DNA of 64,000 nucleotides from a phage. Positions 6,899 through 50,742 of this stretch are shown here, piece by piece. Positions within the stretch are counted from its first letter, which is position 1. Each line of letters begins with the position of its first letter. The stretch lies in the NCBI GenBank assembly GCA_020619395.1, contig GCA_020619395.1_4860.1, one strand, 5' to 3'. Under the pieces are notes generated by a model. It was not told the DNA's origin. It did not search any database and saw only the letters and a program-made list of their open reading frames with translations. Position numbers and translations under genes: made by a program.

Positions 6899-7461
6899 TA
6901 TAAGGCTCCTTTAAAGTGGTATGTTAAGCTTTCTACGAGATGGCAGGTTTGGCTTTCAAAGAAGTGTAAAATGGGCTCAATGGGCACACCGCCGAGATTA
7001 TAGACGATTACGACATGCTTTAATCCGGCCTCGACTTCGCTAAGAAACGATTCGGTTGCGAGTTCACTCTCTGACGAGGAAAGGGTAATCGTTGTTTCCC
7101 CGTCGTCGCTACTACCAGACACGTCCTGTAAACGCAAAACTGTCGGTACGGTTTTACTGATACGAATATCTGGCGGGAGTGTAACCTCCAGTAGCGGTGT
7201 ACGGACTTTACGCGCAAGATAGTTGGTGAATAGATTGGGATCAAGCTCACTGACGCCGCAGCAAATGCAGCTCAGTAAGGTCGACAAGCTTGTCGTTTTA
7301 CGTTCAAATATCCCCTTGATCTGTTTGGCCTTATCGCTATAAAGGAACACCAGCAGCTGGTCGGGGTTATCCGGTAAATCACTTTCAACTCCTTCCCACT
7401 CCGGATCGTTGCGGATGTGCTCTTGCCAGATATCGTTTCGAATTTCTAGTAAACGGAACAT
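6898..7461 (-). CDS. hypothetical protein (187 aa)
   Basis: long ORF; stop overlaps next start. Confidence 0.6.
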   Translation of the reverse strand: MFRLLEIRNDIWQEHIRNDPEWEGVESDLPDNPDQLLVFLYSDKAKQIKGIFERKTTSLSTLLSCICCGVSELDPNLFTNYLARKVRTPLLEVTLPPDIRISKTVPTVLRLQDVSGSSDDGETTITLSSSESELATESFLSEVEAGLKHVVIVYNLGGVPIEPILHFFESQTCHLVESLTYHFKGAL

Positions 7462-7470
7462 ACACTCACC

Positions 7471-8052
7471 TTACGCAATGTAAATACCGCGGTGGTTACG
7501 GAAACCGTGTTCTTCGGTAAGGTAACGCGCATAGGTGTGCTCGACGGATGGGGTGTAGCAAACCAGATGCAGTTCCTGACCTTCAGCTAGGCCCGGTAAC
7601 ATGACGTTTAGCCAATCCATCCCGCCGTTCTGCTGTAACGTATCTTGCGACAGCGTTAGTGGCTGAACAATATGCGCTGGGTTACTGTCGTCTTCGCTTT
7701 TCGTAAAACGAAGAATAGCCGGACGGGAACCATCTACTAGTACCGTGCGCGGTAAGTCAAAAGCAACCACCTTCGCTTTCTGTTCGTAGGATGATTTATA
7801 ACGACGTAACAGTCCAATATCGGTATCTAGTACGGTAGCCATCACGTTATACAACATCACTAGACGGGCGTCGTTATCGGTGGTGACGTGTTTTACGAAC
7901 ACCATCATCGGAATACCTTCGCGTTGGAATACCACGAAGTCTGCTTCTTTGTATTTCTCGCAACCTTCTACTACCCGTGGGGCTTTCACGCGATAGCGGC
8001 GGGTCAGTTCTTCGTAGTTCATTTCATGTTGTTCAATAATTGGTTGTGGCAT
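7471..8052 (-). CDS. hypothetical protein (193 aa)
   Basis: long ORF. Confidence 0.6.
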   Translation of the reverse strand: MPQPIIEQHEMNYEELTRRYRVKAPRVVEGCEKYKEADFVVFQREGIPMMVFVKHVTTDNDARLVMLYNVMATVLDTDIGLLRRYKSSYEQKAKVVAFDLPRTVLVDGSRPAILRFTKSEDDSNPAHIVQPLTLSQDTLQQNGGMDWLNVMLPGLAEGQELHLVCYTPSVEHTYARYLTEEHGFRNHRGIYIA

Positions 8053-8073
8053 GGTTAAATACTCTTTACGGTT

Positions 8074-8102
8074 AAAAAATAAGAAGGGGGTACAAGACCC
8101 CC
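8074..8102 (-). terminator. rho-independent terminator
   Basis: hairpin gggggt-acaag-accccc with T-run on minus strand. Confidence 0.6.
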
Positions 8103-8112
8103 GATGACGAGA

Positions 8113-9351
8113 TTACAGTAAACGCAAATCTGCGACAAACAACAGTTGACGGCCGTACTTAGTCACTTCTTTCCAGCCATTGTTAACACCCCATTTGATG
8201 ATAGCGTCGTAATGCCACTGTTTCAGTTCGCTGGTACCCCACGCATCCCGTACCGCCTTCGCCGACATCAAATAAGCAGGTTCGGCAACGGAGCGCATTT
8301 CAGAATCTGGCAGGCGAGAAACAACGGAACTGTTCACACGCTGCAGCGTTCCTGACACCTGTATCCAGAACGCAGGCGATATTGTATTTGTCGGTCGACA
8401 GTCAAATACCCAGGCCGTGTCATTTTCACTGGCCGGGGTCTTACGCTTATAGATGCTTAACAGTATTTCCGATTGGATAACTTCGCGGAAAACGTTAAGA
8501 AGGGTGACGACCTTCTCATTAACCACATCGCCTTTTTCGACCTTATGGTAATCTTTAAGGTTTCCGGGCTCTGCTATCGGCATTACTGACCAAACATCGG
8601 CGTCTAACATCTCACCGAAATAATGGTTAGCGTTTTCATCAGATGTCCAGAACATCGTATTGCCATCATTGGCTATGGTGGCTAGATCACGCAGTGCTTC
8701 CTTGGTGTCTTCGTCAATTTCCACAGGTTTGGCTGCTTCACGCGGTGCGTTTTTCGTGTAGAATCTGCGCTTGCTTACCGCTCTATTCCATACGGTAGTA
8801 ATTTGGTACGCAGTGAATTCGGGGAACTGCTGCACCAACACTTCTGCATCAACATCAAGCCGCTCTGAATTAAAGTTTTGTAATTTCTCATTAAACCCTG
8901 TATTCAGCTCTCCGCCAGTCCACCAGTTGCTGTCGCTTAGTGCAGGCATGTCAGGTGTTAACTCGAACACCGGTTTATCGATCAGCAGAGTAAGAATGTA
9001 GTGCACCCACATTGTGTTACCCTCAGCAATGGCGCGTCCGATGTTTTGATTACCCGATAGGTAAGCTACCCGCGAATCCCCTTCGAACGTCATGGTTAAT
9101 TCAACCCACGGCGCTAAGTCAGAGACGTGGTGGCCTAAACGACACTTTACTTCCCCTTTGTCAAGCAGACGCTTTTCGACAACGGTTGAGAGCTTTTGTG
9201 GCAGGCACGCACAATCCTGCCACGTTACGTCGCTGTAAGCCATACTCCGAACACTGAACTGCATTCCCAACAGTACAATTGTGTTAGTAATTACTGCATT
9301 AAAGAATGCTTCTTTCGGTGTCTGGTAAACTAATTCGTATTCGTTATACAT
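8113..9351 (-). CDS. hypothetical protein (~412 aa)
   Basis: ORF runs to 9387; ATG at ~9351 (MYNEYELVY..) has RBS aaggaaa. Confidence 0.6.
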   Translation of the reverse strand: MYNEYELVYQTPKEAFFNAVITNTIVLLGMQFSVRSMAYSDVTWQDCACLPQKLSTVVEKRLLDKGEVKCRLGHHVSDLAPWVELTMTFEGDSRVAYLSGNQNIGRAIAEGNTMWVHYILTLLIDKPVFELTPDMPALSDSNWWTGGELNTGFNEKLQNFNSERLDVDAEVLVQQFPEFTAYQITTVWNRAVSKRRFYTKNAPREAAKPVEIDEDTKEALRDLATIANDGNTMFWTSDENANHYFGEMLDADVWSVMPIAEPGNLKDYHKVEKGDVVNEKVVTLLNVFREVIQSEILLSIYKRKTPASENDTAWVFDCRPTNTISPAFWIQVSGTLQRVNSSVVSRLPDSEMRSVAEPAYLMSAKAVRDAWGTSELKQWHYDAIIKWGVNNGWKEVTKYGRQLLFVADLRLL

Positions 9352-36034: not shown

Positions 36035-38212
36035 TTACGATAACGGTATCGTTGGCCGCACCCACGGTTTAGGGGCAGATTTGGTATACGGATTACATTC
36101 CATCATTTTACCGAGATACGCATCGTAATACACGAAGCGATCGACATAGAACCTCTCCACCGGTGTACTACTGGTAGCCGATTTCACCCGGTTGCGTTCC
36201 ACAGCGAGGCCAATCACCCCGGTAGGCGCGGGTTTTAGGGTGAACATTACCGCACGGTTGTAACGCCAAGTGTCGTGCACAATATCAAACTCCGATACAC
36301 TGTGTGCCATGATACCAAACAATGTGGTGGCTGGTAAGTTGGCTACAGCATCGCCGTATGGTGTTCCCACCAAACCGCCGGGTATGTTTTGCTTTTTGAA
36401 CAGCGTACCTGAAATAATCGTACCTAAGAACTCCACAACTACAGGTTTGGTTGGGTCGGTGACTTTATCTATCCCATCCGCACTGGCCAATCGGTTGGCA
36501 TCTAAATCTGCGAGGTAGTCGAGGAACTCTTGGTACTCGTCGGTGACATTCGGTTTCACCGTTCCGACGGATACCCAGTTGACGATACTTTTATTCCCAC
36601 CGACGGCTTCGCCTGCCATCCCAGGGCGAGTCCATGACATCCCGTCTTCACGACCGTAGACATAGACCGGCGAGCCGGTAGCCGGGGTGTTCCATTGCTC
36701 GAACGCTGTATATCGTCCCGGCTGGCCCCAATCGCCACCAGGACCGCCATAGTAGCGACTCTGGTAGCCGGTAAATTGTGCGACGACTAACTGGGTAGCA
36801 CCGCCTTTGTCACGGGACCCAGCTAAGCCGTTACGGTTATTGGTGCCGCTGGGTACCGCCGCGCCTGGCCCGAGAGGCGCACCACCAGCTCCACCGATCT
36901 TGGTGGTGCTAAACGCATAGTAGTCGCCCCCACCCCCACCTCCGGCGATGGTGCCGTAGTTTTCGATGGTGACTTTGCCGCGGAAGGCATCGGTAATGTG
37001 GATTGCGTCAGCTCCGTCTGCTGATGTGTTCGCAGGCAGAGAATAGACCATACCCGAACCACCACGACCAAGAATGGTTCCCCGGTTAACGAAGTTCCAA
37101 ACCACCTCGCCAATTTGCGGCAATTCGTCGATAACGAACGTCGGTTTCAGGTTGCTGTCGCGATAAACGAAAGCCCCCGCATCTACGGTCACGTTAACAA
37201 ACAAACGCCCGCACGCCGCATGGTTGGTCAACGTCGTGGCCCAGTAGCTGTCCGAAACTTGCGACGTAGTTGTGTAGTTCAGGTTAAGGGTTTGCTCGTT
37301 ATCTTGATAGCGTGCCACATTCAACGTGGCACTGCCCATGACTTTGTACGAACCCTCCACAGGTGCCAATTGCACTTGTCTTGGCCACTCGCCTGCCAGG
37401 TCCTCTACGGGAGCAATTTCGTTTACATCAAAAACACTCCGAATGCCGAGTGTCTCGATGGCCAGAGCATCATGCAGGCTACCGGTGAAATCATCCGGGA
37501 CGTATGTGGTTTTGCCTGCATATGTCTCGAGTTTGTTACGTGAAAAGAACACATACTTCGTTCCAAACATCCCGCTCCCCGGTCTAGCGGTCAAAGCCAC
37601 GACGCTGTTATACGCAGAGGTTTGGCCTATATCCTCCGGGGACATCGGGGCGCTGACATCGACTTTATCAAGATCCACGATCCGTTTGGTTGCATTAGAG
37701 TAGAAGTTAATCCACTGCTGTTTATTCGCAGCCTTTAGCGTGAGAATGATGTTGGTAACAGTGTAGACGGTGTTGATATCCACGTCACCGTTTATCACAT
37801 CTAGCGTTTGGCTGCCGTACCAGACAAGACTTGTCTGTTTCGCCTGGAACGTGATGCGCGCAGCATTGTTTGTCCAAGTGATAGGCAGGTCTTCAAAGTC
37901 GTCGGTTAAAAAGGTAATCCCCAGTAAAGTGTCTAAATGCGGCAACAGTTCGTGAATGGATGCACAAGTGGGAATGGCATCCAACTTAACCTTAGCGAAA
38001 TAATCAGCAATATTTTGCTTCGTGACTTGGGCCGTAATTTGACCGTAATTTGAATACCCCGGACCCCCTGTCAGTGTGACGTCTAGGGTTTTTTCGTCAC
38101 GATGCGCCACGGACACCAGGCGTACGTTAGCGGGGTCTACTGCTTTGGCGACCGCGTTTTTACGGTTGAGCGACCGAATCACGGTCGCCACTAAATCGGG
38201 AGTGTAGGACAT
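36035..38212 (-). CDS. paralogue-family structural protein (725 aa), Gly-rich C-terminal half
   Basis: N-terminal domain weakly similar to array paralogues; GGGGGDYYAF..GGPGGDWGQPG region; C-terminal YTKSAPKPW motif shared with 439 aa neighbour. Confidence 0.6.
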   Translation of the reverse strand: MSYTPDLVATVIRSLNRKNAVAKAVDPANVRLVSVAHRDEKTLDVTLTGGPGYSNYGQITAQVTKQNIADYFAKVKLDAIPTCASIHELLPHLDTLLGITFLTDDFEDLPITWTNNAARITFQAKQTSLVWYGSQTLDVINGDVDINTVYTVTNIILTLKAANKQQWINFYSNATKRIVDLDKVDVSAPMSPEDIGQTSAYNSVVALTARPGSGMFGTKYVFFSRNKLETYAGKTTYVPDDFTGSLHDALAIETLGIRSVFDVNEIAPVEDLAGEWPRQVQLAPVEGSYKVMGSATLNVARYQDNEQTLNLNYTTTSQVSDSYWATTLTNHAACGRLFVNVTVDAGAFVYRDSNLKPTFVIDELPQIGEVVWNFVNRGTILGRGGSGMVYSLPANTSADGADAIHITDAFRGKVTIENYGTIAGGGGGGDYYAFSTTKIGGAGGAPLGPGAAVPSGTNNRNGLAGSRDKGGATQLVVAQFTGYQSRYYGGPGGDWGQPGRYTAFEQWNTPATGSPVYVYGREDGMSWTRPGMAGEAVGGNKSIVNWVSVGTVKPNVTDEYQEFLDYLADLDANRLASADGIDKVTDPTKPVVVEFLGTIISGTLFKKQNIPGGLVGTPYGDAVANLPATTLFGIMAHSVSEFDIVHDTWRYNRAVMFTLKPAPTGVIGLAVERNRVKSATSSTPVERFYVDRFVYYDAYLGKMMECNPYTKSAPKPWVRPTIPLS

Positions 38213-38226
38213 GGTGACACCTTAGT

Positions 38227-39546
38227 CTATAGCGGTGGATACCAAGGGACCGGGGCGGTTTTGCTATATGGACTGTAGACCATATAGCCGCCTTTGCTTG
38301 GGTCGTAATAGATGAAATAGTTACAGTAATTCGAGTAAATGCTCGTCATTTGTTTGGATTGGTATCCGTTACGGTATAGTCCCTGGTAAGTAATAGCTGA
38401 TGTCGTGGTGGTGTAAGCAGTGTGGTACAGTACCCGACGCCGGTTAGCAATACTTTCTTGGAACATTTCTTCGGTCGGAAACGCGTGTTGCATCAGCCGT
38501 CGAATACTCCCGGTACAGTATCGAGTGCCATACGGGGAACCCGTTAAATCATCCGCAGTTTCAGGCGATTCTGCCCGAGTCAACACGTACTCGTTTTGAT
38601 ACAACGTGACGCTCATCGAATTTGGGCTGGTTTCCCGGAAACTCATGTAACGCGCATAACGTTCGACGTCCTCTTCCTGCGCCAAATAGGCCACGTTATT
38701 TTTCGGACCAAAGTGCAAGAAGAACGGACGGCGGAGATTACCCATATCCTCAGGTGGCGTCAACTTCACGCAGTAATTGTACTCCCCACGCATATCAGGG
38801 TCTAAGCCTGGGTTGTTATTGCGTGTAGCGACATACCCATAGAGGTCATACGGGTTATCAGTAGCAGCATTACCGATAGTGAACGGGATGCCCGACCATG
38901 CCGACAGCGCCGCGATGAACTGGGTCATGTACGAGTTACTGTTTAGTCGCAGCGGGGTACCCATCGGGATATTGATTATCTGTTGGGTGTACATGCTCCA
39001 GTCGAGTCGATAGACCGTGCTGTAAACATCCATGGGTTCCCAAGCTCCGGTTTCGGTGGTGTGGTACAAGTCGGCAAAGCTGGGCTCTTCACGAATAAAG
39101 CTAATAGGAATGTGACCCGTGAATGCGGGGTTATCCGATTTAATCGCCACCGTCCGATCGCCCGTTGCCACAGTGATCATTGCAAACTGGCTGTCAGGAT
39201 ACGTTAAATCGTCAGCAGTAAGCACCAGCCCACAAGCTGCGGAAATCCGGTCGATGATGTCGCGGTAGGACGTCGCCCGATAAGGTACTTTAACCGGTAC
39301 GCTGACGCCTTTAAAATACTGCGAAAGGTTTAAGCGGTCGTAGTAGATGTCCATCTTACCGCTGTAACCGCCACCCTGTAATCCGTTTACCACTATACGG
39401 CTGTTGCGGCCATCGCGCAAGGCATTGGTTAAAGGACCTTGTAATAACGCCACGTTGGTTGCGTTGAGTGGTTTCTTGAGCTGCGGGTTATCACGATTAA
39501 TCTGATCCCAAACCAGCTGCATGACAGGTTTGTTATAGTTGATCAT
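38227..39546 (-). CDS. paralogue-family protein (439 aa)
   Basis: N-terminal ..INRDNP..RNS..IYYDRLNL domain; C-terminal YSKTAPVPWYPPL. Confidence 0.65.
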   Translation of the reverse strand: MINYNKPVMQLVWDQINRDNPQLKKPLNATNVALLQGPLTNALRDGRNSRIVVNGLQGGGYSGKMDIYYDRLNLSQYFKGVSVPVKVPYRATSYRDIIDRISAACGLVLTADDLTYPDSQFAMITVATGDRTVAIKSDNPAFTGHIPISFIREEPSFADLYHTTETGAWEPMDVYSTVYRLDWSMYTQQIINIPMGTPLRLNSNSYMTQFIAALSAWSGIPFTIGNAATDNPYDLYGYVATRNNNPGLDPDMRGEYNYCVKLTPPEDMGNLRRPFFLHFGPKNNVAYLAQEEDVERYARYMSFRETSPNSMSVTLYQNEYVLTRAESPETADDLTGSPYGTRYCTGSIRRLMQHAFPTEEMFQESIANRRRVLYHTAYTTTTSAITYQGLYRNGYQSKQMTSIYSNYCNYFIYYDPSKGGYMVYSPYSKTAPVPWYPPL

Positions 39547-39557
39547 TGCAACGTCCT

Positions 39558-39593
39558 AAAAAAAGAAAATAGGCCCTTCAGGGCCTATTTTTA
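39558..39593. terminator. bidirectional rho-independent terminator
   Basis: stem aggccc-ttca-gggcct flanked by A-run and T-run. Confidence 0.7.
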
Positions 39594-39620
39594 GCTGTTA
39601 TGGTGAAGTACGCTATCCCT

Positions 39621-39713
39621 TTAACTCCAGCTGATTCGACCTGCGTGTTGGGGATTATCCCGCTGAATGAGCCGACACAACAGCTCAAGTGCAGTGGATG
39701 AGTAAAACCCCAT
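39621..39713 (-). pseudogene. 30-codon remnant of a family-A paralogue
   Basis: MGFYSSTALELLCRLIQRDNPQHAGRISWS* aligns with the N-termini of the A paralogues (MGLYSAPELELLCQQVVRDNPELAGRIS..); intact RBS aggag; premature stop. Confidence 0.5.
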
Positions 39714-39724
39714 ATTAGCTCCTG

Positions 39725-40627
39725 TTAGCTAAGAACCAGTTCGATAACGTGGACTACCGACGCGCTATTGGTCGAAGAGGTGTACGATGGTGTGTCTGGT
39801 GAGTTGCTGCGATAGTACCAGGGGGTGGCGTTGTCATAACCGTTGGCAAACAATGTTGCGCTTGAATCGGTTGGACTACCGCCGGAGCGCGCCGGTAAGT
39901 CGCCAAAACGTCTTACGACGCCCGCGTAGCGGAACAAGCTTGCGAACGTGTTGTGCCACTCGCCATCTTGAAAATAACCACCGCTGCTTAGGTAGGTGCT
40001 GTGCCCATAACTGTAGTCTCCGAGTCGAGGCAAACGTACCACATACTCGTAACCGTCTTTATTAAATGTCCGACGCTGGTTAGTGGTAGCGACGCCCCGT
40101 GGCGGGAAACCGTAGTCATCTGTTCCCCAGGCCAGACCTTGCTGGTATTGTTCGTTCCACGTCGTCCCTAAACGGGTCACCGTGTCAGGAATGAACAGAA
40201 TGCGTCCTTTGAAAACGAATTTATGGAACAATGTTGGAGCTTGGTTCCAGGCATTAAAGCCAATTAAACCATTCAGCTCGGCATGGTTAAGAATAAATTC
40301 TTCGTTTGTCAGTGTGCCAAAGTAGCCACGATGCCAATCGCCACGAATAAGTTCCTGTGGGCCGGGCCCTGTCATTGGAAAGTCGCCCTGTACAATCGGC
40401 AGCCCCATAACCTTTTCAGTGCCCTTTACCGCCACGATGCGATATTGATACGTTTTATACGCCTCGGTGGTCGTGTCCTCGTACGTCGTTGTGTTACCTG
40501 GTAGTGTTACAATAGGTTCCCCCGGTGCTACTGGGTTAACACTTTGTCTGGGGTTGTCGTAACGATAGATTTCAATGGAATCTAAAGTCTGACCTGGCTG
40601 TTGTTTCCAGTTTAAGATAATCGACAT
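39725..40627 (-). CDS. family-B paralogue 1 (300 aa)
   Basis: N-terminal Ig/FN3-like (..IEIYR..TY.Y.IVAVK) then TGPGPQ..GDWH.GYFG domain. Confidence 0.65.
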   Translation of the reverse strand: MSIILNWKQQPGQTLDSIEIYRYDNPRQSVNPVAPGEPIVTLPGNTTTYEDTTTEAYKTYQYRIVAVKGTEKVMGLPIVQGDFPMTGPGPQELIRGDWHRGYFGTLTNEEFILNHAELNGLIGFNAWNQAPTLFHKFVFKGRILFIPDTVTRLGTTWNEQYQQGLAWGTDDYGFPPRGVATTNQRRTFNKDGYEYVVRLPRLGDYSYGHSTYLSSGGYFQDGEWHNTFASLFRYAGVVRRFGDLPARSGGSPTDSSATLFANGYDNATPWYYRSNSPDTPSYTSSTNSASVVHVIELVLS

Positions 40628-40630
40628 GTT

Positions 40631-41629
40631 TTACTCCACTAACTCGATAACGAATGCGTACAAACCGACCTTCTCAGCACTGTCAATTAACGTAACTTGG
40701 GAGAGGTTACGTTTCGACGTATTGGTTATGCTTGAATCGATAGGCGCAGACCCGCGAACCAGAACTAATCCCGATTCAGGATCACGTTCTTGGCACAAGA
40801 AACCTTTGCCTTGGTAAGCGCTACCGCTCCCATAAATGGACGCTGGACTAATATTAGTCCAGTTAGGGAGCATTTGTTTGTTAGGGATACAATCTCCGAA
40901 CGGATAAACAAAATCGTTATATTCGCAGCGACCATATTCCAAGTCATCATGGTCTGCGTTTCGCAACGATTCATCCAATGTCATTACTGTCGGTTCGTCC
41001 CCGTCGGTTAAACCGCGCAGCAATCGCATCCGATAGGTGTCGCCTTGCCATTCAAACAACCCACTCTGGTCAACACCTGCCAAATCCCCACGTCCGTTAT
41101 CAGGACCAAATCCATCAACACCGTACACAAGCCCCGCGTTATAAATGTCATTCCACGAGTAAAGTGTAGAGTTAAATCGTCCGCCGCTGTTCATCATGTA
41201 GTAAACTTTACCATGTCGATAAAACTTGTTCATGATTAGCGTGCCCGTGCCCGATATCCCTGTTAATGCACGAAAGCCTGCAGGCAACGCGTCATAGGTC
41301 ATCTGTTCTTCGAACGGCAACTGCCCCAGAAACGCCAAGTCGTCAGTATCGGAATAGTTAATCTGGTCGACGCCACCCACACCACGACGGTTTTTAATGA
41401 CAATGGATTTTTGTGGACTACCTACGGTACGGCCGTTAACAGTTACTGTTAAAAGATACCAGTAACGGGTGTTAAGAATAACGGTTTCGTCCGTCCATTC
41501 CGTTTCGCCATTACTTAAAGTTGCAATAGGGGCTGGTAATGCGGCTGTATTTATTTTAGCCGTGCCCCGATAAATGTTAACAATTGAACCTGCCGGATTT
41601 TCATTTTTCCAGCGTAGTGTGAATGCCAT
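40631..41629 (-). CDS. family-C paralogue 1 (332 aa)
   Basis: MAFTLRWKN..VNIYRGT N-terminus; paralogous to 43996..44985 and 47441..48439. Confidence 0.65.
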   Translation of the reverse strand: MAFTLRWKNENPAGSIVNIYRGTAKINTAALPAPIATLSNGETEWTDETVILNTRYWYLLTVTVNGRTVGSPQKSIVIKNRRGVGGVDQINYSDTDDLAFLGQLPFEEQMTYDALPAGFRALTGISGTGTLIMNKFYRHGKVYYMMNSGGRFNSTLYSWNDIYNAGLVYGVDGFGPDNGRGDLAGVDQSGLFEWQGDTYRMRLLRGLTDGDEPTVMTLDESLRNADHDDLEYGRCEYNDFVYPFGDCIPNKQMLPNWTNISPASIYGSGSAYQGKGFLCQERDPESGLVLVRGSAPIDSSITNTSKRNLSQVTLIDSAEKVGLYAFVIELVE

Positions 41630-41639
41630 CTGTTACTCC

Positions 41640-43082
41640 TTAGAAGCCGTTCAACTCACCGTTCGCGGTTGCTAAATCTGTTTTAAGTGGAGGTTCTGCC
41701 TGAGTAGGCGGTAGTGGACGCGGTGCGTCGACGTGTGGTTCAAGTACAACCATCGGCCTAACTGTACCTACGCTGTTCGACACTGTCGATAACGGCAGCG
41801 CAGTATCGACGTTTGGTTCACCCACCACAATCGGGCTGATAGGTTCTTCCACCTGTTCCGCAGTTGTTGCTAGAGGTCTCGGCGCATCTGTTGTCGCAAC
41901 CTCGACTGCAAGAGGGCGAATGCTATCAGGTTGTGGTGATGGTACATTAGGAATAACCCTAACGCGCCACACAACATCCCCTTCCACATCAGCTAAAGAT
42001 AAGACGATGTCGTCCTTATTGATTTCCTCTAAAACAGGCCACCAGTAAGTGGTATCTGTAAGGGTTACCCATTCAACTGAGCCACCGCGCATATTGCAAC
42101 GTTGTACTTTAACAGGGTTACCCCCGGTTAACAGTTGTTGCGTGAAGAAGACGGTGGTTCTGGTTAACGTGGTGTCATTTGCCCAGTCGCCGCCCGTAGA
42201 ACCGTCACCGAGTTGTGAAATAAGCCACAACGGTGTGGCCTTTGATAAATCAGGGCTAACCGGAACGGAGACGCGGTAATAATGCGTCTTGTTATTCTCA
42301 GTTTTCGTGACAATCAAAGCCTGGTCAACAGGTTCGATACCGTCTGGATACGGACCAGTGTCACCTGTACCGAAAATGGCACCCGCTTGATAAAGGGCCG
42401 TCCAGGTTGCTGTTAACGTTCCGGTAGTCGGTAGATAAACAATCTTACCATCCTTGAAAAATTTCAACCATTCGAAAGTCATTTTCGTTGGGGCAACATC
42501 AGGACGAATTAGGTTGTTTAGTTCAGCAAAGGTAAATAACTCTTGCTGAGAAACGTGGCCGAAGTATCCGTTTGTGCTGTCCCCTGCCAACAAATATTTA
42601 TTGCCTGGCCCAGAATCTGGATAGTAGCCCACGGCTTCATTCAAATAATCGACCGGGATATAGCCGCGATAGCATACGCTATTATACGCGGTTAAATTAA
42701 TACGTGTTGGCGTTGCCAGCGATTTGATAGGCGCGTCTACCGACTGTACACTGCTATCAGATAACCAAACACCGTATAAATCGCGTAGAGCTGGGAGAAG
42801 ATCCCGCACGGTCTTGGCCGTTTGTGGTACGTAGACGCGCGGAGCTATTTTAAATAGATCTGATAATGTTAAACGGTCGTAATAAACCGTGCACTCCCCA
42901 GAGAAACCTTTACCGGGTTTACCTACCAACGTAATTACCGTGTTACGACCATTCTTAGTGGTCTCGGCAGGAATACCCCTCACCCCAATCGAATCAGCGC
43001 TGATTCTTCCTGCGAGTTCAGGGTTATCCCTTACGACTTGTTGGCAGAGCAATTCCAGTTCGGGTGCGCTATACAATCCCAT
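41640..43082 (-). CDS. family-A paralogue 1 (480 aa)
   Basis: N-domain (RDNP..RNT..VYYDRLTL), SGPG..GYFG..ELF domain, C-terminal NGELNGF; RBS aggag. Confidence 0.65.
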   Translation of the reverse strand: MGLYSAPELELLCQQVVRDNPELAGRISADSIGVRGIPAETTKNGRNTVITLVGKPGKGFSGECTVYYDRLTLSDLFKIAPRVYVPQTAKTVRDLLPALRDLYGVWLSDSSVQSVDAPIKSLATPTRINLTAYNSVCYRGYIPVDYLNEAVGYYPDSGPGNKYLLAGDSTNGYFGHVSQQELFTFAELNNLIRPDVAPTKMTFEWLKFFKDGKIVYLPTTGTLTATWTALYQAGAIFGTGDTGPYPDGIEPVDQALIVTKTENNKTHYYRVSVPVSPDLSKATPLWLISQLGDGSTGGDWANDTTLTRTTVFFTQQLLTGGNPVKVQRCNMRGGSVEWVTLTDTTYWWPVLEEINKDDIVLSLADVEGDVVWRVRVIPNVPSPQPDSIRPLAVEVATTDAPRPLATTAEQVEEPISPIVVGEPNVDTALPLSTVSNSVGTVRPMVVLEPHVDAPRPLPPTQAEPPLKTDLATANGELNGF

Positions 43083-43093
43083 GAAGTCTCCTG

Positions 43094-43993
43094 TTAAGGC
43101 AGAACGAGTTCAAGTACCGCAATGGAGCGTATTGTAGTGGTACCGTAGTTACTCCATGCCGGCGACTCAGGGTAAGGTGGACGGTTGTACCACTGACTGG
43201 ACGTGTTATTCATAGCCGCAAAGAATGCAGATTGTTGGGCAGTAACCGAATCGATTGAACCGACCGGAAGGTCGTCAAAGCGCGGAAACTGCCCACTGTA
43301 GTTGTACAGGCGCGCGAAGGTGTTAAACCACTCACCGTCGAGATACAACTCAGTGTTACCGCTTCCAACGTAAGACGTCCAGTATTTGTAGTCGAACAAA
43401 TACGGCAAGCGCACCACGTATTCGTAACCGTTCTTCGCCACCGTGCGGCGTTGGTTACGTGCAGTAGCCCAGCCCGGTACATATCCATTGCCATCCTGGC
43501 CGTACATCATCCCCTGGTTATAAATGAACTGCGGGCTAGCGTTTATTATCGAGTTATCGGACATAAACAGAATACGGTTTTTGTAAATGAATTTATGCCA
43601 GGCACCAACGGCGGAACTGAACATATTCACCACGAGGCCGTTCAGTTCCGTGTTAGTGAATAACTCTGCTGGCGTTACTGTTCCAAAGTATCCAGCGTGC
43701 CAGTCGCCGTATAACAGTTTCTGGGGGCCAGGCCCGGTGTCTAAAAAGAACCCTTGGGCGGTAGGGGTGTTGAAGACACGCTCACCGTCTTTAACCGCAG
43801 CTATCCAATAACGGTAAGTGGTGTTGTTTTCCACAGCGTTGTCTTCGTACGATGTAGCGTCACCCGGAAGGGTTGCCAGAGGCGTTCCCGGTGCATTAAC
43901 ATCAATTGTGGCGTTGCCCGGCGTCTTGCGATAGATTTCGATGTTATCGAGCGCCTGTGGCTTCCGTTGTGCAAAGTGTAATGTAATAGGCAT
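43094..43993 (-). CDS. family-B paralogue 2 (~300 aa)
   Basis: ORF runs to 44029; ATG at 43993 (MPITLHFAQ..) has RBS gagga and abuts upstream stop. Confidence 0.65.
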   Translation of the reverse strand: MPITLHFAQRKPQALDNIEIYRKTPGNATIDVNAPGTPLATLPGDATSYEDNAVENNTTYRYWIAAVKDGERVFNTPTAQGFFLDTGPGPQKLLYGDWHAGYFGTVTPAELFTNTELNGLVVNMFSSAVGAWHKFIYKNRILFMSDNSIINASPQFIYNQGMMYGQDGNGYVPGWATARNQRRTVAKNGYEYVVRLPYLFDYKYWTSYVGSGNTELYLDGEWFNTFARLYNYSGQFPRFDDLPVGSIDSVTAQQSAFFAAMNNTSSQWYNRPPYPESPAWSNYGTTTIRSIAVLELVLP

Positions 43994-43995
43994 GA

Positions 43996-44985
43996 TTAAT
44001 CCTCGATAAGCTCGATTACTGGAATCCAAATACCGCCCACGGTCGCACCAGGGACATGTTGTATACGCTGGAGGTTATCCACGGTATCAGTGGAATCCGC
44101 CGCCGCCAATCCGCGCGTCAGCCCCAACTTACGTTCTGGGTCAAACTCCTGACAATGCGCCCCACGGCCTGCCACCAGCGATCCATTTCCGAATATGCTG
44201 GAGTTCGACCACTTTATCAGGGACATCACTTTTTTCTTTTCTGGGAACCAGCTACTTATCCCATAGATGAGTCGGTTGTATTCGCTATCGGCAGTATACG
44301 GTGACGCGTCATGGAGTTTACCGTCCCACTGTGCATCGAGTGTCATGACCGGGCTTTCACTGTCGAGTGTTAAACCGCGCAGCAGGCGCATCCGATAGCG
44401 GTCACCCAACCACGTAAACTCCCCAGCCTGGTCAACGTCAGGTAAATCGCCATGACCGCCTTCCGGACCAGGTCCCGCCACACCGTACAGCAAACCCGCG
44501 TTATAAATCGCATCACGGCTATACAGCGTGTTGCCGTTCACACGAAGACCACTAAACAGATACAGAATTTTACCGTCTAGCTGGAACTTCATCAAGCCCG
44601 GCTTAACAGTTGGGTCGTATCCAGAAAGGGCCACAAACCCTGGCGGATAATCACCCGCGCTAGGTAATTCACCGTACGCCACGTACCCGTAATACGCAAA
44701 GCGGTCATCACCGTACTGTGGAGCCACGATGCCGATACCGCGACGGTTCTGAATTAGAATTGATTTCTGCGGACTGAACAGTGTCCGACTTCCCACTGTC
44801 ACGGTGGTCATGTAGTAATACGTTGTCCCCAGTATCGCTGTTCGGTCAGTATACTCAGTTTCCCCGTTAGTGAACGTTGCCAGGGGTTCAGGTAATGCCG
44901 TACGCACCAGAGGTTTGGTGTCGCGGTACAGCTTCACGGTCGAAGCCCCAGGGTTATTGTTCGTCCAACGAATTGTAAAAGCCAT
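43996..44985 (-). CDS. family-C paralogue 2 (329 aa)
   Basis: MAFTIRWTN..VKLYRDT; AGPGPEGGHGDLP motif. Confidence 0.65.
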   Translation of the reverse strand: MAFTIRWTNNNPGASTVKLYRDTKPLVRTALPEPLATFTNGETEYTDRTAILGTTYYYMTTVTVGSRTLFSPQKSILIQNRRGIGIVAPQYGDDRFAYYGYVAYGELPSAGDYPPGFVALSGYDPTVKPGLMKFQLDGKILYLFSGLRVNGNTLYSRDAIYNAGLLYGVAGPGPEGGHGDLPDVDQAGEFTWLGDRYRMRLLRGLTLDSESPVMTLDAQWDGKLHDASPYTADSEYNRLIYGISSWFPEKKKVMSLIKWSNSSIFGNGSLVAGRGAHCQEFDPERKLGLTRGLAAADSTDTVDNLQRIQHVPGATVGGIWIPVIELIED

Positions 44986-44997
44986 TGTCGTTACCTC

Positions 44998-46494
44998 TTA
45001 TTGGAATCCATCCAACTCACCGTTAGTATCGCCCAGAGTAATTTTTGAAGGTTGGGCGATTTGGTCAGTCGTGAGAATAATCGGTCTAATCTTAACGCTA
45101 GCCATGCCTGTTACCGCGACGGAATATGCACGTTCATCATTGTCCGTCGTGGCAAGCAGAGGACGTGGTGAGTCTGATGACGCTTCCCGCAGCCAGGCAG
45201 GGGTGGCAGTTTCGGTGTTGTCGGTGTTGAAAACTAACGGACGTGGATTCGCTGCGGCGGAGGTTTCCGTAATAGGCACCACACGAAGCGATTCATTTTG
45301 GTCGATGTCCGTCAGAGTAACCACGGACGGTGCCCATGTTAGCTCTGCACCTTCGTCAATCAACGGCACAGGTTCATTGGCAACATCAAACATCTCCAGG
45401 ATTGGCCAAAAGCCAGAAGAGGTGTAGATGTAGGTGTTTGAACGATAGCTCGCGCTGATAGACTGGTAATACGCTTGGTCGGCACCGAACTGGTGTCGTA
45501 ACCACACGTAATCCAGGAAGTTAGCATCAGTCGTGCTAAGAGTTCCCCACTCCCCATATACGTTCACCGACCCCAATTTGCTGGTCAGTGACAGGATAGA
45601 GGTGATTGACGGCGGTTTACTCCAATCAGGCGCGGCGGCGTTCTCGGTGTAATACGGGATAGACATTCTGAAATAATGCGTTCCTTCATCATCCCGTTTT
45701 ACCATGTATTTCAACTGTTCAACATCGACAGGTGTGTAAGTCGACTTCGGGCGAGGTCCTGCGTCTCCGGAATCAAATATTGCACCCTTGTTGTACAGGT
45801 CTGCCCAGGTAACGTTGCAAATCGCACGGGTCGGAACAAACACTACCGCCCCATTCAGAAAGAATTTGAGCCACTTGATAGCGTAGCGGTTAGGCCAGTT
45901 GGTGCCGTTATAAAGGGCATACACCATTTCATCAGATGTGAATAACTCTTCCGCGCTTACCAGCCCAAAGAATCCGTATAACTCATTACCAGCCATTAAT
46001 CCTTTTGGCCCAGGACCCGACTTCGGATACATCGCAATCGGTTCGTAAACATAGGTCATCTTGCATGACCCGGTATAGCACAAGGAGTTAGCGTGCGCCG
46101 TCAGAGTTACAGTTTCCGGCGTAGCGTATTTCATTAATGCAACGTTTGGACTGGTGATATCACTCGCGGTTAAGTTCAACCCGTTCAATTCATTGAACGC
46201 CGGTAACGCTTCCGCATGGGTTTGTGCGCTACGTGGAATACTCACCATATTCGGGCCAGACTTAAATAGACTGGCCAGATTCAACCGGTCGTAATATACC
46301 GTTATTTCCCCAGCAAATCCTTTACCGGGTTTTCCTACCAACGTAATCTGAGTGTTTCGTCCGTTAACGTTTTTCGCAACAGGAACACCCCTGACCCCAA
46401 TGGAGTCAGGGGTGATTTTTCCTGCTAAACCGGGATTGTCACGCACAATTTGTTGGCAGAGCAGTTCCATTGAAGGTTCTGTATACAACCCCAT
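44998..46494 (-). CDS. family-A paralogue 2 (498 aa)
   Basis: MGLYTEPSMELLCQQIVRDNP..; C-terminal TNGELDGFQ. Confidence 0.65.
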   Translation of the reverse strand: MGLYTEPSMELLCQQIVRDNPGLAGKITPDSIGVRGVPVAKNVNGRNTQITLVGKPGKGFAGEITVYYDRLNLASLFKSGPNMVSIPRSAQTHAEALPAFNELNGLNLTASDITSPNVALMKYATPETVTLTAHANSLCYTGSCKMTYVYEPIAMYPKSGPGPKGLMAGNELYGFFGLVSAEELFTSDEMVYALYNGTNWPNRYAIKWLKFFLNGAVVFVPTRAICNVTWADLYNKGAIFDSGDAGPRPKSTYTPVDVEQLKYMVKRDDEGTHYFRMSIPYYTENAAAPDWSKPPSITSILSLTSKLGSVNVYGEWGTLSTTDANFLDYVWLRHQFGADQAYYQSISASYRSNTYIYTSSGFWPILEMFDVANEPVPLIDEGAELTWAPSVVTLTDIDQNESLRVVPITETSAAANPRPLVFNTDNTETATPAWLREASSDSPRPLLATTDNDERAYSVAVTGMASVKIRPIILTTDQIAQPSKITLGDTNGELDGFQ

Positions 46495-46507: not shown

Positions 46508-47431
46508 TTACGGTAAGACTAATTCAAAAGCAAAGAATATCGTGGCCGAGTTCCCGACACCTGCGGTGTTACTAATCCCCATAGGCACGGTGCCATACGC
46601 ATAAGCGAATATGTTGTTGCTCCACAAAGGAGCTAATACAGCGGCACCTGACTCATTCGGCTGCGCAGTCGCGCCTTGTCTTTCAAGTGAGTCAATCGCA
46701 CCAAGACCGAGGGCTGCGTACTGTGCACCGACAGGATACAAACGGCCCATTGTGTTTCGCCATTCACCGTTGTTGTAATCCTGTCCTGAGAGTGCCGCGT
46801 CGTACGGGACTGCGTAAGGTAATCGGATACGGTACGTACGACCATCCTTCGTGACCTTACAATCTTGTTTAGTCGCCGTGGCTCCCTGCGGAACAATACT
46901 TCCGACATCATCGGTCCCGTACATCATGCCGTACTGATACGCCATTTGTACCGAGTTGCTTTTCGAATGCATCGTCGCTGGGAAGAAGACAATTCGCCCA
47001 CGGAAAATAAACTTGTGCCATTCCTGAGGGTCGTAAGTAAACATGTTTCCCTGCTGCGCGGTTAACATGAGTTTTAACTCGGCAGTATTAAAGAACTCGG
47101 TATTAGATACCGTACCGAAATAGCCTGACGCCCAATCGCCACGCAAAATAGTTTGTGGCCCCGGTCCAGTGTCCGGATAGAACCCTTGCGTAATCGGATT
47201 GCCGATAAGTCGTTCACTATCTTTCACAGCAGCTACCCAGTAACGATAAGTTGTATTCTTCGTCAGGGTATCGATATTATCTACGAACTCTACCGCGCTA
47301 CCGGATAAGGTGGCGTGGGGTGTACCTGGGTTGTAAACGTCGATTGTTGCGTTCCATCCTTCCTTGCGGTAGATTTCAATCGCGGTAAGACCTTTGCTGG
47401 CTTGGGACGGCCAGCTTAACCGTATAGTCAT
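46508..47431 (-). CDS. family-B paralogue 3 (307 aa)
   Basis: MTIRLSWP..IEIYRK..DTGPGPQT..GDWASGYFG. Confidence 0.65.
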   Translation of the reverse strand: MTIRLSWPSQASKGLTAIEIYRKEGWNATIDVYNPGTPHATLSGSAVEFVDNIDTLTKNTTYRYWVAAVKDSERLIGNPITQGFYPDTGPGPQTILRGDWASGYFGTVSNTEFFNTAELKLMLTAQQGNMFTYDPQEWHKFIFRGRIVFFPATMHSKSNSVQMAYQYGMMYGTDDVGSIVPQGATATKQDCKVTKDGRTYRIRLPYAVPYDAALSGQDYNNGEWRNTMGRLYPVGAQYAALGLGAIDSLERQGATAQPNESGAAVLAPLWSNNIFAYAYGTVPMGISNTAGVGNSATIFFAFELVLP

Positions 47432-47440
47432 GACTGCCCC

Positions 47441-48439
47441 TTACTCGACCAGTTCAAAGATAGGGTAGTAGCGCCCTTTCGTGGTGGGTGATAAATAGTT
47501 TATACGCTGAATCGTGGATACGGGTGTTCCACCGGCATTGTTAAAAATACCACGATGGAGCACACGGTCTTCCGCGGTATCGTGTTCCATACAGAGAACA
47601 CCACCGCCGAAATACTGTGCCAAGGTTCCCAAAGTACCTTGCCCCAGATAAGTATAACCGATTGTTGCCCAGTTAGCCCAACGCTGTTTCTTCGGCACCT
47701 CGTTAACCATCGTGTAAAGTAAATCGTTATACTCACACGGGTTGGTTAGAGAAGCGATTTCATCATGGGTTTTCCCATTATAGTCAGCTACGAAAGGATA
47801 CGCAGGAGGCTCGCTAGACATCGTCAGGCCGCGAGGAAGACGCATGATGTACGTATCCCCTTTGTGGACTATCTTAGCGTCTTGTGGAGTGGCCGGTAGC
47901 GTTCCATGGCCGTTCTCTGGACCAGCATCGCCCGTACCATAGACTAAACCAGCTTGATAGAGGGAAGCCCAGTCCACAGGCGTATTCGGGAACTGCGACG
48001 TGCTAGATAGCATGTAATAGATCTTCCCGTTTCGGGTAAATTTATACAACGCCACACGATCGGTTAGTAGGTTAGGGAACATCGCCAAAAATGCAGGTGG
48101 CATTTGCGACGGAAGCCACTGTTCGTCGTAAGGAACCGCACCCATAAACCCTAAACGGTCGTCACCGTTTAGAATAGTCATTGGACCGATCCCACGCTTT
48201 ATCTCAATGGTGTATTTCTGGCTAGACGATGCCACTGTTTTACCGTTGGCGGTTACCGTCAGAAGGTAATAATAGGTTGCGCCTGGTGTGGCGGTGGTAT
48301 CACGCCATTCTGTCTCGCCATTTGAGAGCGTTGCAATCGGTTCAGGCAAAGCGCTTGGTGTGATATCTTTAACATCACGGTAGATTTTTACTACCGTAGG
48401 GATTACGTTTGGATTTTTCCAACGCAAAGTAAAAGACAT
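47441..48439 (-). CDS. family-C paralogue 3 (332 aa)
   Basis: MSFTLRWKN..VKIYRDV. Confidence 0.65.
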   Translation of the reverse strand: MSFTLRWKNPNVIPTVVKIYRDVKDITPSALPEPIATLSNGETEWRDTTATPGATYYYLLTVTANGKTVASSSQKYTIEIKRGIGPMTILNGDDRLGFMGAVPYDEQWLPSQMPPAFLAMFPNLLTDRVALYKFTRNGKIYYMLSSTSQFPNTPVDWASLYQAGLVYGTGDAGPENGHGTLPATPQDAKIVHKGDTYIMRLPRGLTMSSEPPAYPFVADYNGKTHDEIASLTNPCEYNDLLYTMVNEVPKKQRWANWATIGYTYLGQGTLGTLAQYFGGGVLCMEHDTAEDRVLHRGIFNNAGGTPVSTIQRINYLSPTTKGRYYPIFELVE

Positions 48440-48450
48440 AGATGATACCT

Positions 48451-49863
48451 CTACTTAAAGCCGTCCAGTTCACCGTTAAGAGACGTTAACGTTGTCTTGT
48501 CAGGGGGCGTATACATTTCAGCGGTAGCCGCAATAGGTTGGAAGTCGACTGTCTTCGGCAGCATTAAAGCAGGCGGATGCAGTGCGAAACTGTTTTCTGA
48601 AGTAACAACTACCGGTTCGAAATCGGTAGTATCCGGATTACCGAGCACTAACGGCTTGAGACTAAATGTGTTTTCTGCGGACACGCTGCACGGTTGGAGA
48701 CTGTAATCTGCCGTACCGTGGATATCTTCTAAACCCAAGGTAACTGTGGACTTATCCACCAACTCCAGCACCGGGAACCAGTAGTAGTTGCCCGCACTCG
48801 ATGATTTTTCTAAGTTTGTCCAACTTGCTCCAGACAACGTCGCCATGCGATGATTGGCGACGTTGGTCTTCAGTGTATCTTTCAATAAACAGAACAGCGT
48901 CCAGTAACTGTTAATCGGTTTGTCCCACGTTCCATTATACAGAAAGTTGAACATCTCAAACTCACTACCTGCTAACTCAGCGGCAGTTGGGGTGCCGCTG
49001 ACGTATGGGTCTTTCCCGGCACTAGGTAGACGAACGCGGAAGTAAAACCTTTTGTTGTCTGCGCCTGTAAAGCTAATGATGCGTCCCTGGTTAACGGGCG
49101 TCGCCGCAGGGTATTTACCATTATCGTCTGTTCCGTAAACGAGTCCGTTTGTATATAACGTATTCCAGGAGATGGAGCTAGCGACAGGACTGATCGGAAG
49201 GTAAATAACCCTACCCTGGTAAAAGAACTTGTACCAACCTTCGGCACCAGAATGTACCGGTGGTAACGCACCGGCCGATATAGTGGCATTAAGAAGTTGA
49301 GAGTGTGTAAACAACTCTGCAGTTCTGGTTGTTCCGAAATAACCCGCGATAGTGTTACCTTGCAGCAACGTTTTAGGGCCAGGTCCAGAATCGGGGTAAA
49401 TTGCACCACTCGGGACGGTATAACGTATCGTTAAGCTGCCTGTAAACGCAGGGCAATTGCCTGAGATATTTAATTTCAACGTCTGCGGCGAAACGCTCGG
49501 TTTAGGTAAACTTGCGTCAGGTGACTGCAAATCAGAAGCAACTAATGTAAGCCCCAATGCGTCGTTTATTGCAGGTAGCGCGTCTCGTACCGTTAAGACT
49601 GTATCTTTGATAGCCACAGTCGGCACAAAATTAAATAAAGTGGCCAGGTTAATCCGGTCGTAGTACACGGTAACATTACCTTGTACACCTGTCCCTGGAT
49701 ACCCGGTGAAAACAGCTTTGGTGTTACGTTGGTTTAACGTAACTGAAGTTGGGCCACTGGTTAAAGCAGCGATAGCCGGCGTCAGCTTAACAACTAAATC
49801 AGGGTTATCCCGATTGACTTGGTCGTATACAAGCAGTGCCGACTCCTTCGAGTAAAATAGCAT
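48451..49863 (-). CDS. family-A paralogue 3 (470 aa)
   Basis: MLFYSKESALLVYDQVNRDNP..; C-terminal LNGELDGFK. Confidence 0.65.
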   Translation of the reverse strand: MLFYSKESALLVYDQVNRDNPDLVVKLTPAIAALTSGPTSVTLNQRNTKAVFTGYPGTGVQGNVTVYYDRINLATLFNFVPTVAIKDTVLTVRDALPAINDALGLTLVASDLQSPDASLPKPSVSPQTLKLNISGNCPAFTGSLTIRYTVPSGAIYPDSGPGPKTLLQGNTIAGYFGTTRTAELFTHSQLLNATISAGALPPVHSGAEGWYKFFYQGRVIYLPISPVASSISWNTLYTNGLVYGTDDNGKYPAATPVNQGRIISFTGADNKRFYFRVRLPSAGKDPYVSGTPTAAELAGSEFEMFNFLYNGTWDKPINSYWTLFCLLKDTLKTNVANHRMATLSGASWTNLEKSSSAGNYYWFPVLELVDKSTVTLGLEDIHGTADYSLQPCSVSAENTFSLKPLVLGNPDTTDFEPVVVTSENSFALHPPALMLPKTVDFQPIAATAEMYTPPDKTTLTSLNGELDGFK

Positions 49864-49880: not shown

Positions 49881-49907
49881 AAAAGAGGGGGGCTCCGAAG
49901 AGCCCCT
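49881..49907 (-). terminator. hairpin, weak terminator
   Basis: stem ggggctc-cgaa-gagcccc; only a short T-run on minus strand. Confidence 0.4.
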
Positions 49908-49911
49908 ACAC

Positions 49912-50742
49912 TTAGCTGTTATAGTGGTAGTACGCCACGCCTTTCACGCCTTCCTCATCGATACCCGTTTGGATAACCACGCGGTCGTACGATTTGTTAG
50001 CGAACTGAGCGGTGGATGTCGGCACATCCTGAACGGTGTTACTGTTCAGTGGCCCCGCGTAGTTCGGAATACCCAGGTCATCCAACACCTTACGCAAACC
50101 AGCCCACTGCGGTAGGCCAGAAGCATCTACTGTCAGTAGGTTTTTATACGCGGTAAAGTCAATACCGTACGTCAACAAATCAATACACTTCTTACCGAGA
50201 GACGGTGAAATAGGCTCTTGAATCGCATTCAAGACATCTGATTTCACCGAAGTGTCTAGTACCGGTAAACCACGGTTATAACGCAACGTCGCAGAACCGA
50301 TATAAGCCGGAGATGTCGATAGCGCTGCAATGGTCTGTGTATTGGTGTAATTTGGGGTATTGGCACCAAACAGTGAGTAGTTTTGGATATCGATTGCGGA
50401 GAAGTTTACTCCGTAAGTATCCAAGAGCACCGAAAAGGCTGAGTGGAGGTTGGGCGCGTCAAACGTGACGAACTGCGCCTGGACAGAAGGACCCCACGGC
50501 AATAACCGCGCTAAGTTCACACGGTCGTAGTAAACGGTGATTGCGTCTCGAAATCCGGAACCCTGAATACCGCGCAAGCGTGCCGACGTATTGCGGTTGT
50601 TGGAAGCTGCATTAACGGGAACCTGCGTCACTTTCTCCACGTAGCAGTTTGCCGGCGACGCTTTAATAGGTAGGTTTGGGTTATCCCGGTTAATGAGGTC
50701 AAAGACCAACTCGTTTGACGGCTTAGCATAGTTGATCATCAA
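49912..50742 (-). CDS. family-D paralogue 1 (276 aa)
   Basis: N-domain MMINYAKPSNELVFDLINRDNP..VYYDRVNL; C-terminal YYHYNS. Confidence 0.65.
   Translation of the reverse strand: MMINYAKPSNELVFDLINRDNPNLPIKASPANCYVEKVTQVPVNAASNNRNTSARLRGIQGSGFRDAITVYYDRVNLARLLPWGPSVQAQFVTFDAPNLHSAFSVLLDTYGVNFSAIDIQNYSLFGANTPNYTNTQTIAALSTSPAYIGSATLRYNRGLPVLDTSVKSDVLNAIQEPISPSLGKKCIDLLTYGIDFTAYKNLLTVDASGLPQWAGLRKVLDDLGIPNYAGPLNSNTVQDVPTSTAQFANKSYDRVVIQTGIDEEGVKGVAYYHYNS

Follow-up and report, generated by a model that had tools for sequence, protein, structure and literature searches.

The 30-codon open reading frame (ORF) at 39621-39713 of the DNA analyzed here, a 64,000-nt stretch of phage genome referred to as the window, is very probably a scar without function, left in the DUF7941 cluster of virion-fibre genes in a jumbo phage of SPN3US type. 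Sequence comparison with related phages indicates that the ancestor had a fourth A-B-C gene triplet after C1 and that, in the SPN3US lineage, the stretch from about codon 69 of its A gene (A4) to the terminator ahead of the endolysin gene was replaced by another segment. This replacing segment comprises the last ~50 codons of a gp144-type DUF7941 gene, the terminator of that gene, gp154 and gp155. The resulting A/gp144 fusion ORF then decayed via small deletions flanked by microhomology.

A 4.9-kb query taken from the window (38200-43100) showed 100% identity to Salmonella phage 1252 and 98.9% to SPN3US, and judged by its sequence the window belongs to an SPN3US-like Seoulvirus, a phiKZ-like jumbo phage of Salmonella. 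All genes treated here are carried on the minus strand, and their numbers follow the original SPN3US numbering. The fibre cluster and its downstream neighbors are arranged as follows:

49912-50742, minus strand: gp144, 276 aa, with a full DUF7941
46508-49863, minus strand: triplet A3, B3 and C3 (gp145-147)
43094-46494, minus strand: triplet A2, B2 and C2 (gp148-150)
39725-43082, minus strand: triplet A1, B1 and C1 (gp151-153)
39725-40627, minus strand: C1 (SPN3US gp153), the last intact gene of the third A-B-C triplet, directly upstream of the stub
39547-39724: gap between gp153 and gp154 that holds the stub, 178 nt
38227-39546, minus strand: gp154 homologue (439 aa) with a full DUF7941-like region and a C-terminal domain; gene 1 of the gp154-gp155 module
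36035-38212, minus strand: gp155 homologue, 725 aa, DUF7941 N-terminal domain plus a GP38-adhesin-like domain; gene 2 of the module
35967-35988, minus strand: terminator hairpin ahead of the endolysin gene; right-hand boundary of the exchanged segment
downstream of 36035, minus strand: endolysin gene (gp156)

The A-type paralogues correspond to SPN3US gp145, gp148 and gp151 (phrog_3589), and gp144-type genes to phrog_1037 (Phobos gp143, CR5 gp142). The DUF7941 N-terminal domain opens the three A proteins, gp144, gp154 and gp155; against Pfam DUF7941 (PF25613, gathering threshold 27 bits), A1, A2, A3 and the fourth A protein of phage JN03 scored 79-110 bits over profile positions 1-155. Gene products 138-154 of SPN3US have been described as "paralog family B" virion proteins, a family with many members and variable copy number (PMC5694885). 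For DUF7941 proteins, a preprint on phage Goslar (10.64898/2026.04.21.720040) proposes head-to-tail polymerisation, by docking of a linker and C-terminal domain on the N-terminal domain; the long filaments so formed would be anchored on the peripheral baseplate and serve in host recognition. Among the relatives compared here (CR5, SPLA3, SPN3US, ChrisDB), the number of A-B-C triplets ranged from 1 to 4.

Several features of the cluster were observed in passing. A1 (41640-41666), A2 (44998-45027), A3 (48451-48480) and a gp160-like 175-aa gene (32616-32645), all on the minus strand, end in a near-identical motif, (T/A/L)NGEL(D/N)GF(Q/K/V) followed by the stop. On the same strand, gp155 ends ...PTIPLS at an in-frame TAA (36002-36037), after which the frame reads FNEELDGFKA and a stop; since Phobos gp145 and CR5 gp144 read through to ...NGELAGFKS and ...DTLDGFKK, respectively, before their stops, the conserved C-terminal (N)GELDGF tail has been cut off in SPN3US-type gp155 by a nonsense codon, a stop also present in gp155 of phage Lh1B. 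The longest endolysin ORF (35929-35992, minus strand; ATG at 35992) starts within the terminator hairpin at 35967-35988, and likelier starts are the RefSeq ATG right after the T-run or a GTG behind AGGAGG, the equivalent of the annotated ATG start of JN03.

Within the gap between gp153 and gp154, the stub is composed of the following elements:

39719-39723, minus strand: AGGAG ribosome-binding site (RBS), inherited from the A gene
39621-39713, minus strand: 30-codon ORF, stop included, encoding MGFYSSTALELLCRLIQRDNPQHAGRISWS
39648-39713, minus strand: start of the A-type part (nt 1-66), "fourth A gene" type; 62/66 identical to the JN03 A start
39630-39647, minus strand: A-type nt 67-84, A1-like (codons 23-28, ..HAGRIS); 15/18 identical to A1
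39630-39633, minus strand: CAGC microhomology at the junction; 140 nt missing relative to phage SPLA5c, frame shifted
39591-39629, minus strand: remnant of the 3' end of a gp144-type gene (276-aa DUF7941), out of frame; ancestral stop at 39591-39593
39556-39591, minus strand: intrinsic-terminator-like hairpin (39566-39591) and T-run (39556-39565), formerly those of the gp144-type gene

The stub ATG occupies 39711-39713 and the C1 stop 39725-39727, leaving an 11-nt spacer; the C2-to-A1 boundary is arranged alike, and the TAACAGGAG...ATG layout of the stub matches that upstream of A1. An earlier note on this DNA had described an intact RBS and ORF here, followed by a terminator, and these elements were all found, with exactly the translation that the note had given. 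The ORF has no annotation in the RefSeq or GenBank record of SPN3US. It ends 29 nt before an intergenic, G+C-rich hairpin with an 11-bp stem and a GAAG loop, followed by CTTTTTTT; hairpin and T-run together make 39556-39591 a predicted Rho-independent terminator. Rfam gave no family, either for the whole window or for the local region.

We next compared the stub with the A genes. The A-type N-terminal pattern MG(L/F)YS..LELLC....RDNP..AG(R/K)I(S/T), encoded immediately behind a C gene and an 11-nt spacer that holds AGGAG, is present in the stub. Over its 28 A-type codons, amino acid identity (counted by hand) was 18/28 to A1, 15/28 to A2, 9/28 to A3 and 22/28 to the fourth A of JN03. Local nucleotide alignment with the A1 and A2 5' ends gave a score of 20, compared with 8.3 ± 1.2 for shuffled sequences (maximum 14), and alignment with the A3 5' end stayed at chance level. 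The match to the first ~27 residues of the A paralogues described in the earlier note is confirmed. That the ORF arose by chance and is unrelated to the A genes has virtually no probability: it is short, and the 30-aa peptide by itself had no match to Pfam DUF7941 at E ≤ 10, but its alignment scores lie about 10 standard deviations above the shuffles, its first 66 nt are 94% identical to the start of a real A gene, and RBS and spacer are shared.

Ungapped nucleotide identity over the 84 A-type nucleotides was 51/84 to A1, 52/84 to A2 and 70/84 to JN03 A4, and this similarity is unevenly distributed. Nucleotides 1-66 match JN03 A4 at 62/66 positions (94%) and A1 at 36/66, whereas nucleotides 67-84, all that the window retains of the second part, match A1 at 15/18 and JN03 A4 at 8/18; in SPLA5c the A1-like stretch runs on to about 70 nt (ADSIG...ECTIYYD). 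By these comparisons, the A-type part is a mosaic of a JN03-A4-like and an A1-like sequence. The ORF is not A-derived throughout, since its last two codons and stop (TGG AGT TAA) lie beyond the junction, GAATCAGC|TGGAGTT, at 39630|39629. The stub contains no full-length A ORF, which would span ~470-510 aa with a complete ~150-aa DUF7941 N-terminal domain, a central domain and a ..NGEL(D/N)GF end. No A-like sequence follows its 30 codons in any frame, and gp144-type 3' sequence is found instead; the stub is thus a remnant rather than an A member gene.

A full-length A-type gene follows the C1 orthologue, after the same short spacer, in the Salmonella phages JN03 and STsAS and in the Erwinia phages ChrisDB, pEa_SNUABM_4 and Phobos. 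JN03 keeps the sequence from ~110 nt before the end of C1, across the spacer, to ~70 nt into the stub nearly unchanged; there it leads into a 504-aa A gene (L006 10048-11562) with B, C and the endolysin gene behind it. For the stub region, this was the best such match within Seoulvirus, at 95% over query positions 1-118. The best DNA matches from outside the SPN3US group were the C end and A start at the equivalent position of pEa_SNUABM_4 and ChrisDB (75%). In these two phages, 11 nt separate the nearest C1 orthologue (57-61% identity) from a full A gene (463 and 465 aa, MGLYSQPPLELLCRLIMRDNP...), after which come B, C and another triplet; Phobos has the same arrangement of a C1 orthologue leading into a full A gene. 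STsAS likewise has an A-B-C triplet after the C1 orthologue and then directly the endolysin gene. We noted that this complete triplet (L003 9932-13399; 505, 347 and 295 aa) is not annotated in the STsAS GenBank record. JN03 further contains, in an unannotated 498-nt gap (L006 9562-10036), a second scar that joins the 5' ~370 nt of A1, including an internal stop codon, to the last ~110 nt of C1; it is the remnant of a deleted A1-B1-C1 triplet.

The 94% identity to JN03 over the first 66 nt, together with the common C1 tail upstream, indicates that a further A copy existed at this position and was truncated, in agreement with the earlier note's reading of a deletion or recombination scar. An origin as a partial duplication of the 5' end of the resident A1 or A2 downstream of C1, which would never have been a full gene, is highly improbable. 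The amino acid identities to A1 and A2 and the A1-like nucleotides 67-84 could be read in this way, as could the stub of phage SPLA3, which has a pure A1 5' end; however, nucleotides 1-66 are far closer to the start of the full-length JN03 gene than to A1, the C1 tail ahead of the JN03 gene is the same, five other phages have a full-length A gene here, and the long form of the stub in SPLA5c retains A sequence as far as the YYD motif (about codon 69). No flanking duplications of the stub that would mark the A gene as a recent insertion were seen in JN03, STsAS or the Machinavirus genomes.

The truncated fourth A gene accounts for the 5' part of the scar; its 3' part has a different source. Beyond the junction, the stretch from the 39-nt remnant through hairpin and spacer into the start of gp154 matched Phobos at 79.6% identity (query positions 128-219). 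Its counterpart there covers the 3' end of the gp144-type gene gp143 with the terminator of that gene and reaches into gp144, which is the gp154 orthologue of Phobos. The same hairpin lies between Phobos gp143 and gp144. The 3' part of the stub also aligns with the 3' end of the window's own gp144 (49912-50742), which is followed by a comparable hairpin at 49889-49906. A gp144-type 3' end and hairpin thus stand directly before a gp154-type gene, with 77% identity over 138 nt for the SPLA5c long form. We considered whether an A gene might instead continue past the stop with a 5-nt frameshift, as the shifted frame, ..GVKGIAYFTITAKNRP, resembles ..GVRGIPAETTKNGRN of A1. This reading was rejected: the stretch aligns far better with a gp144-type C-terminus and terminator (..GVKGVAYYHYNS), and in SPLA5c it is contiguous with further gp144-type sequence.

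Full-length gp154 orthologues outside the SPN3US group were found in Phobos and the Cronobacter phage CR5 only, and both have the order gp144-type, gp154-type and gp155-type gene, then A-B-C triplets. In Derbicusvirus phages gp144-type, gp154 and gp155 genes are adjacent in that order, upstream of the triplets. The adjacency in Phobos and CR5 indicates that the 3' remnant and terminator travelled with the gp154-gp155 module. On the right side, similarity to JN03 and STsAS, which bear A4-B4-C4, returns at the terminator hairpin 35967-35988 before the endolysin gene; the segment exchanged for the rest of A4, B4 and C4 accordingly runs from the junction 39630|39629 to about 35990. The terminator that now closes the triplet operon ahead of gp154 is, by these alignments, the old terminator of the gp144-type gene. 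A scan of IMG/VR with gp154 returned SPN3US itself only, and no genome turned up that could have donated a closely related gp144'-gp154-gp155 segment, the Phobos and CR5 gp154 orthologues having only ~49-50% protein identity. The scar is therefore more than the simple truncation first proposed, its A-type start being fused to a gp144-type 3' end and terminator brought with the gp154-gp155 module.

To trace how this fusion reached its present form, we compared the scar among isolates. In SPLA5c it is a 91-codon in-frame A/gp144 fusion, MGFYSSTALELLCRLIQRDNPQHAGRISADSIG-ECTIYYDE-SLNSNTVADVTTASNSFANKAYGRVVIQTDVEAAGVKGIAYFTITAKNRP. Its 5' part is of A type up to the YYD motif (A1 codon ~68-69), with an 84-nt in-frame gap flanked by TGGGG; it then switches at a TACG microhomology to codon ~229 of a gp144-type gene (compare the C-terminus of the window's gp144, ..NYAGPLNSNTVQDVPTSTAQFANKSYDRVVIQTGIDEEGVKGVAYYHYNS), and, close to its end, the loss of 1 nt places the stop codon within the hairpin loop (TGA in CCCTGAAGGG). 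This long form, found in SPLA5c alone among 50,697 phage records, is annotated there as a virion structural protein, and its 91 aa matched Pfam DUF7941 at 29.4 bits over profile positions 228-272 (cut-off 27). Compared with SPLA5c, the window has one clean 140-nt gap at CAGC and otherwise 3 mismatches in 241 nt. As 140 is not a multiple of 3, the frame is shifted and a stop follows after two codons. The homology of the missing 140 nt to both parent genes makes the long form the ancestral one and the 30-codon form the derived one. The 30-codon ORF is thus not a direct truncation of an A gene but the product of a secondary deletion in a fusion that survives in SPLA5c.

All SPN3US-type phages carry the 140-nt deletion, as the window does. 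SPLA3, which is without A1-B1-C1, has the same junction and tail behind a pure A1 5' end, again in 30 codons (MGLYSAPELELLCQQVVRDNPELAGRISWS). EC001 has a further 88-nt deletion at ATAGCG(C/T)AC that leaves MGLYSALYHNS (11 codons), ending 5 nt before the hairpin stem, and Lh1B has a shortened spacer like that of EC001, with N's at the junction in its record. The LR5359xx records (SPFM1, 5-10, 12, 14, 15 and 20) and OK428535 (Lh1B) were left out of the allele calls; in these, the window matched in at least 40 short pieces (50% coverage) or N's occurred at the scar, which points to sequence-quality problems. A 6.3-kb match span in SPLA1a, considered as an insertion with a full gene, proved to be only a paralogous BLAST piece, the gene order being that of SPN3US. 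In SPLA5c, the B-type gene upstream of C1 (L010 7056-8130) is annotated as two ORFs, 7056-7646 and 7732-8130, which suggests a disrupted B gene or a recombination junction. Separately, the A2 coding region contains a perfect inverted repeat of 13 bp around a 3-nt loop (CACCCCTGACTCCATTGGGGTCAGGGGTG) at nt 81-109 (46386-46414, minus strand), a position homologous to the stub deletion endpoints CAGC (nt 81-84) and TGGGG (nt ~98-102), possibly by coincidence.

Taken together, these alleles show a stepwise decay. The left junction, between A-type ...YYD and gp144-type ...NY-AG... at the TACG microhomology, would have formed by illegitimate recombination or a large deletion, and the module could have come from recombination with another phage or from an intragenomic rearrangement followed by deletion. 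At the SPLA5c stage, the 84-nt deletion at TGGGG and the 1-nt deletion are already present; the 140-nt deletion at CAGC then produced the 30-codon ORF of the window and SPN3US-type phages, and the 88-nt deletion at ATAGCG(C/T)AC the 11 codons of EC001. Homology of the missing pieces to the parent genes fixes the polarity of this decay. In SPLA3, A1-B1-C1 was likely removed when the A1 5' end recombined homologously with the stub, as the pure A1 5' end of its stub is what A1/stub recombination would be expected to leave.

The long form raises the possibility that the fusion is a working mini-protein, a DUF7941 C-terminal fragment that would dock on fibre subunits at their N-terminal domains and cap or modulate filaments assembled head to tail, with the 30-aa form as a variant. 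The polymerisation by C-terminal docking proposed in the Goslar preprint (10.64898/2026.04.21.720040) would allow for this, and the SPLA5c ORF is in frame, scores above the Pfam threshold over profile positions 228-272 and is annotated as a structural protein. We nonetheless regard it as extremely doubtful: the frameshift costs the window ORF its whole C-terminal part, the SPLA5c ORF, found in one record only, has itself an internal 84-nt deletion and a terminal 1-nt frameshift, and with 28 residues out of ~150, the N-terminal domain is unlikely to fold.

A second functional reading would make the stub a leader whose translation sets terminator read-through into gp154-gp155 in an attenuation-like manner. 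RBS and ATG are intact, a strong terminator-like hairpin comes right after the ORF, and the SPLA5c ORF ends inside the hairpin loop, so that translation could melt the 5' arm and alleles could differ in read-through. This is nevertheless quite unlikely, as ORF length and sequence vary (91, 30, 30 and 11 codons) among otherwise near-identical isolates, random microhomology deletion explains each allele difference, the fold has no evident alternative anti-terminator pairing, the stop codon and hairpin are the native end of a gp144-type gene, as in Phobos, and the stub shows no excess conservation. As judged against a leader-peptide attenuator, the ORF is unconserved in length and sequence among close relatives, and neither alternative pairing nor an Rfam match was found. 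It is very unlikely, too, that alleles ending 29 nt before the hairpin (window), in its loop (SPLA5c) or 5 nt before its stem (EC001) set different levels of read-through into the gp154-gp155 adhesin-like module and so tune the amount of fibre, with the SPLA5c form perhaps also capping filaments.

The non-functional scar remains the preferred reading. The stub ORF is identical in most SPN3US-type isolates, but as the region is ~99% identical throughout, this carries little weight. Special conservation was considered for phage MET_P1_082_240, in which the stub is 100% identical (96.8% over the 4.9-kb query), and was rejected, as the mismatch-free patch of 368 nt (39425-39792) also spans the 5' end of gp154 and the 3' end of C1. 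Nothing in the sequences points to a function, and the variable length, the frameshift and the lack of excess conservation argue against one. EC001 and Lh1B suggest that phages tolerate losing the stub. The RBS probably still drives translation of a 30-aa peptide without a role, although with RBS and ATG intact, translation and some minor role may be possible.

These results have consequences for annotation and for the history of the cluster. The 178 nt between gp153 and gp154, nominally "intergenic", make up a composite pseudogene and should receive no protein call, despite the annotation in SPLA5c. The series of scars (91, 30, 30 and 11 codons) and the second scar of JN03 form a record, dated by order, of gain, loss and swap of A-B-C cassettes and of gp154-gp155 in the chimallivirus DUF7941 cluster, with exchange points in conserved 5' ends and decay by microhomology deletions. 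This provides useful background to the host range of Seoulvirus phages used against Salmonella.

Among known systems, the closest are the SPN3US paralog family B (gps 138-154) and the Pfam DUF7941 fibre proteins of chimalliviruses (Goslar gp22/gp23, PhiKZ gp126/gp127): the 28 codons of the stub are the start of the DUF7941 N-terminal domain, and the 39 nt after the junction are the DUF7941 C-terminal end of a gp144-type gene. Unlike the member proteins, the stub is a pseudogene fragment from two members of the family, with 28 of ~150 residues and the C-terminal piece out of frame. In tail-fibre and receptor-binding cassettes, such as the T-even gp37/gp38 region and other loci, host-recognition modules are exchanged at conserved 5' (virion-attachment) segments, leftovers remain at the junctions and cassette number varies between close relatives. 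Compared with mosaics of the T-even gp37/gp38 type, the stub joins two paralogues of one family, an A-type N-terminus and a gp144-type C-terminus, and an allelic series of four decay stages is kept among sequenced isolates. As in pseudogene deletions flanked by microhomology, each step here is clean and bounded by a direct repeat of 4-9 nt (TGGGG, CAGC, ATAGCG(C/T)AC), for which we infer, from the junction sequences, replication slippage or illegitimate recombination. The scar is thus the outcome of ordinary cassette shuffling and pseudogene decay in a hypervariable host-recognition cluster, with no new mechanism, and a new, unannotated example of a known phenomenon.
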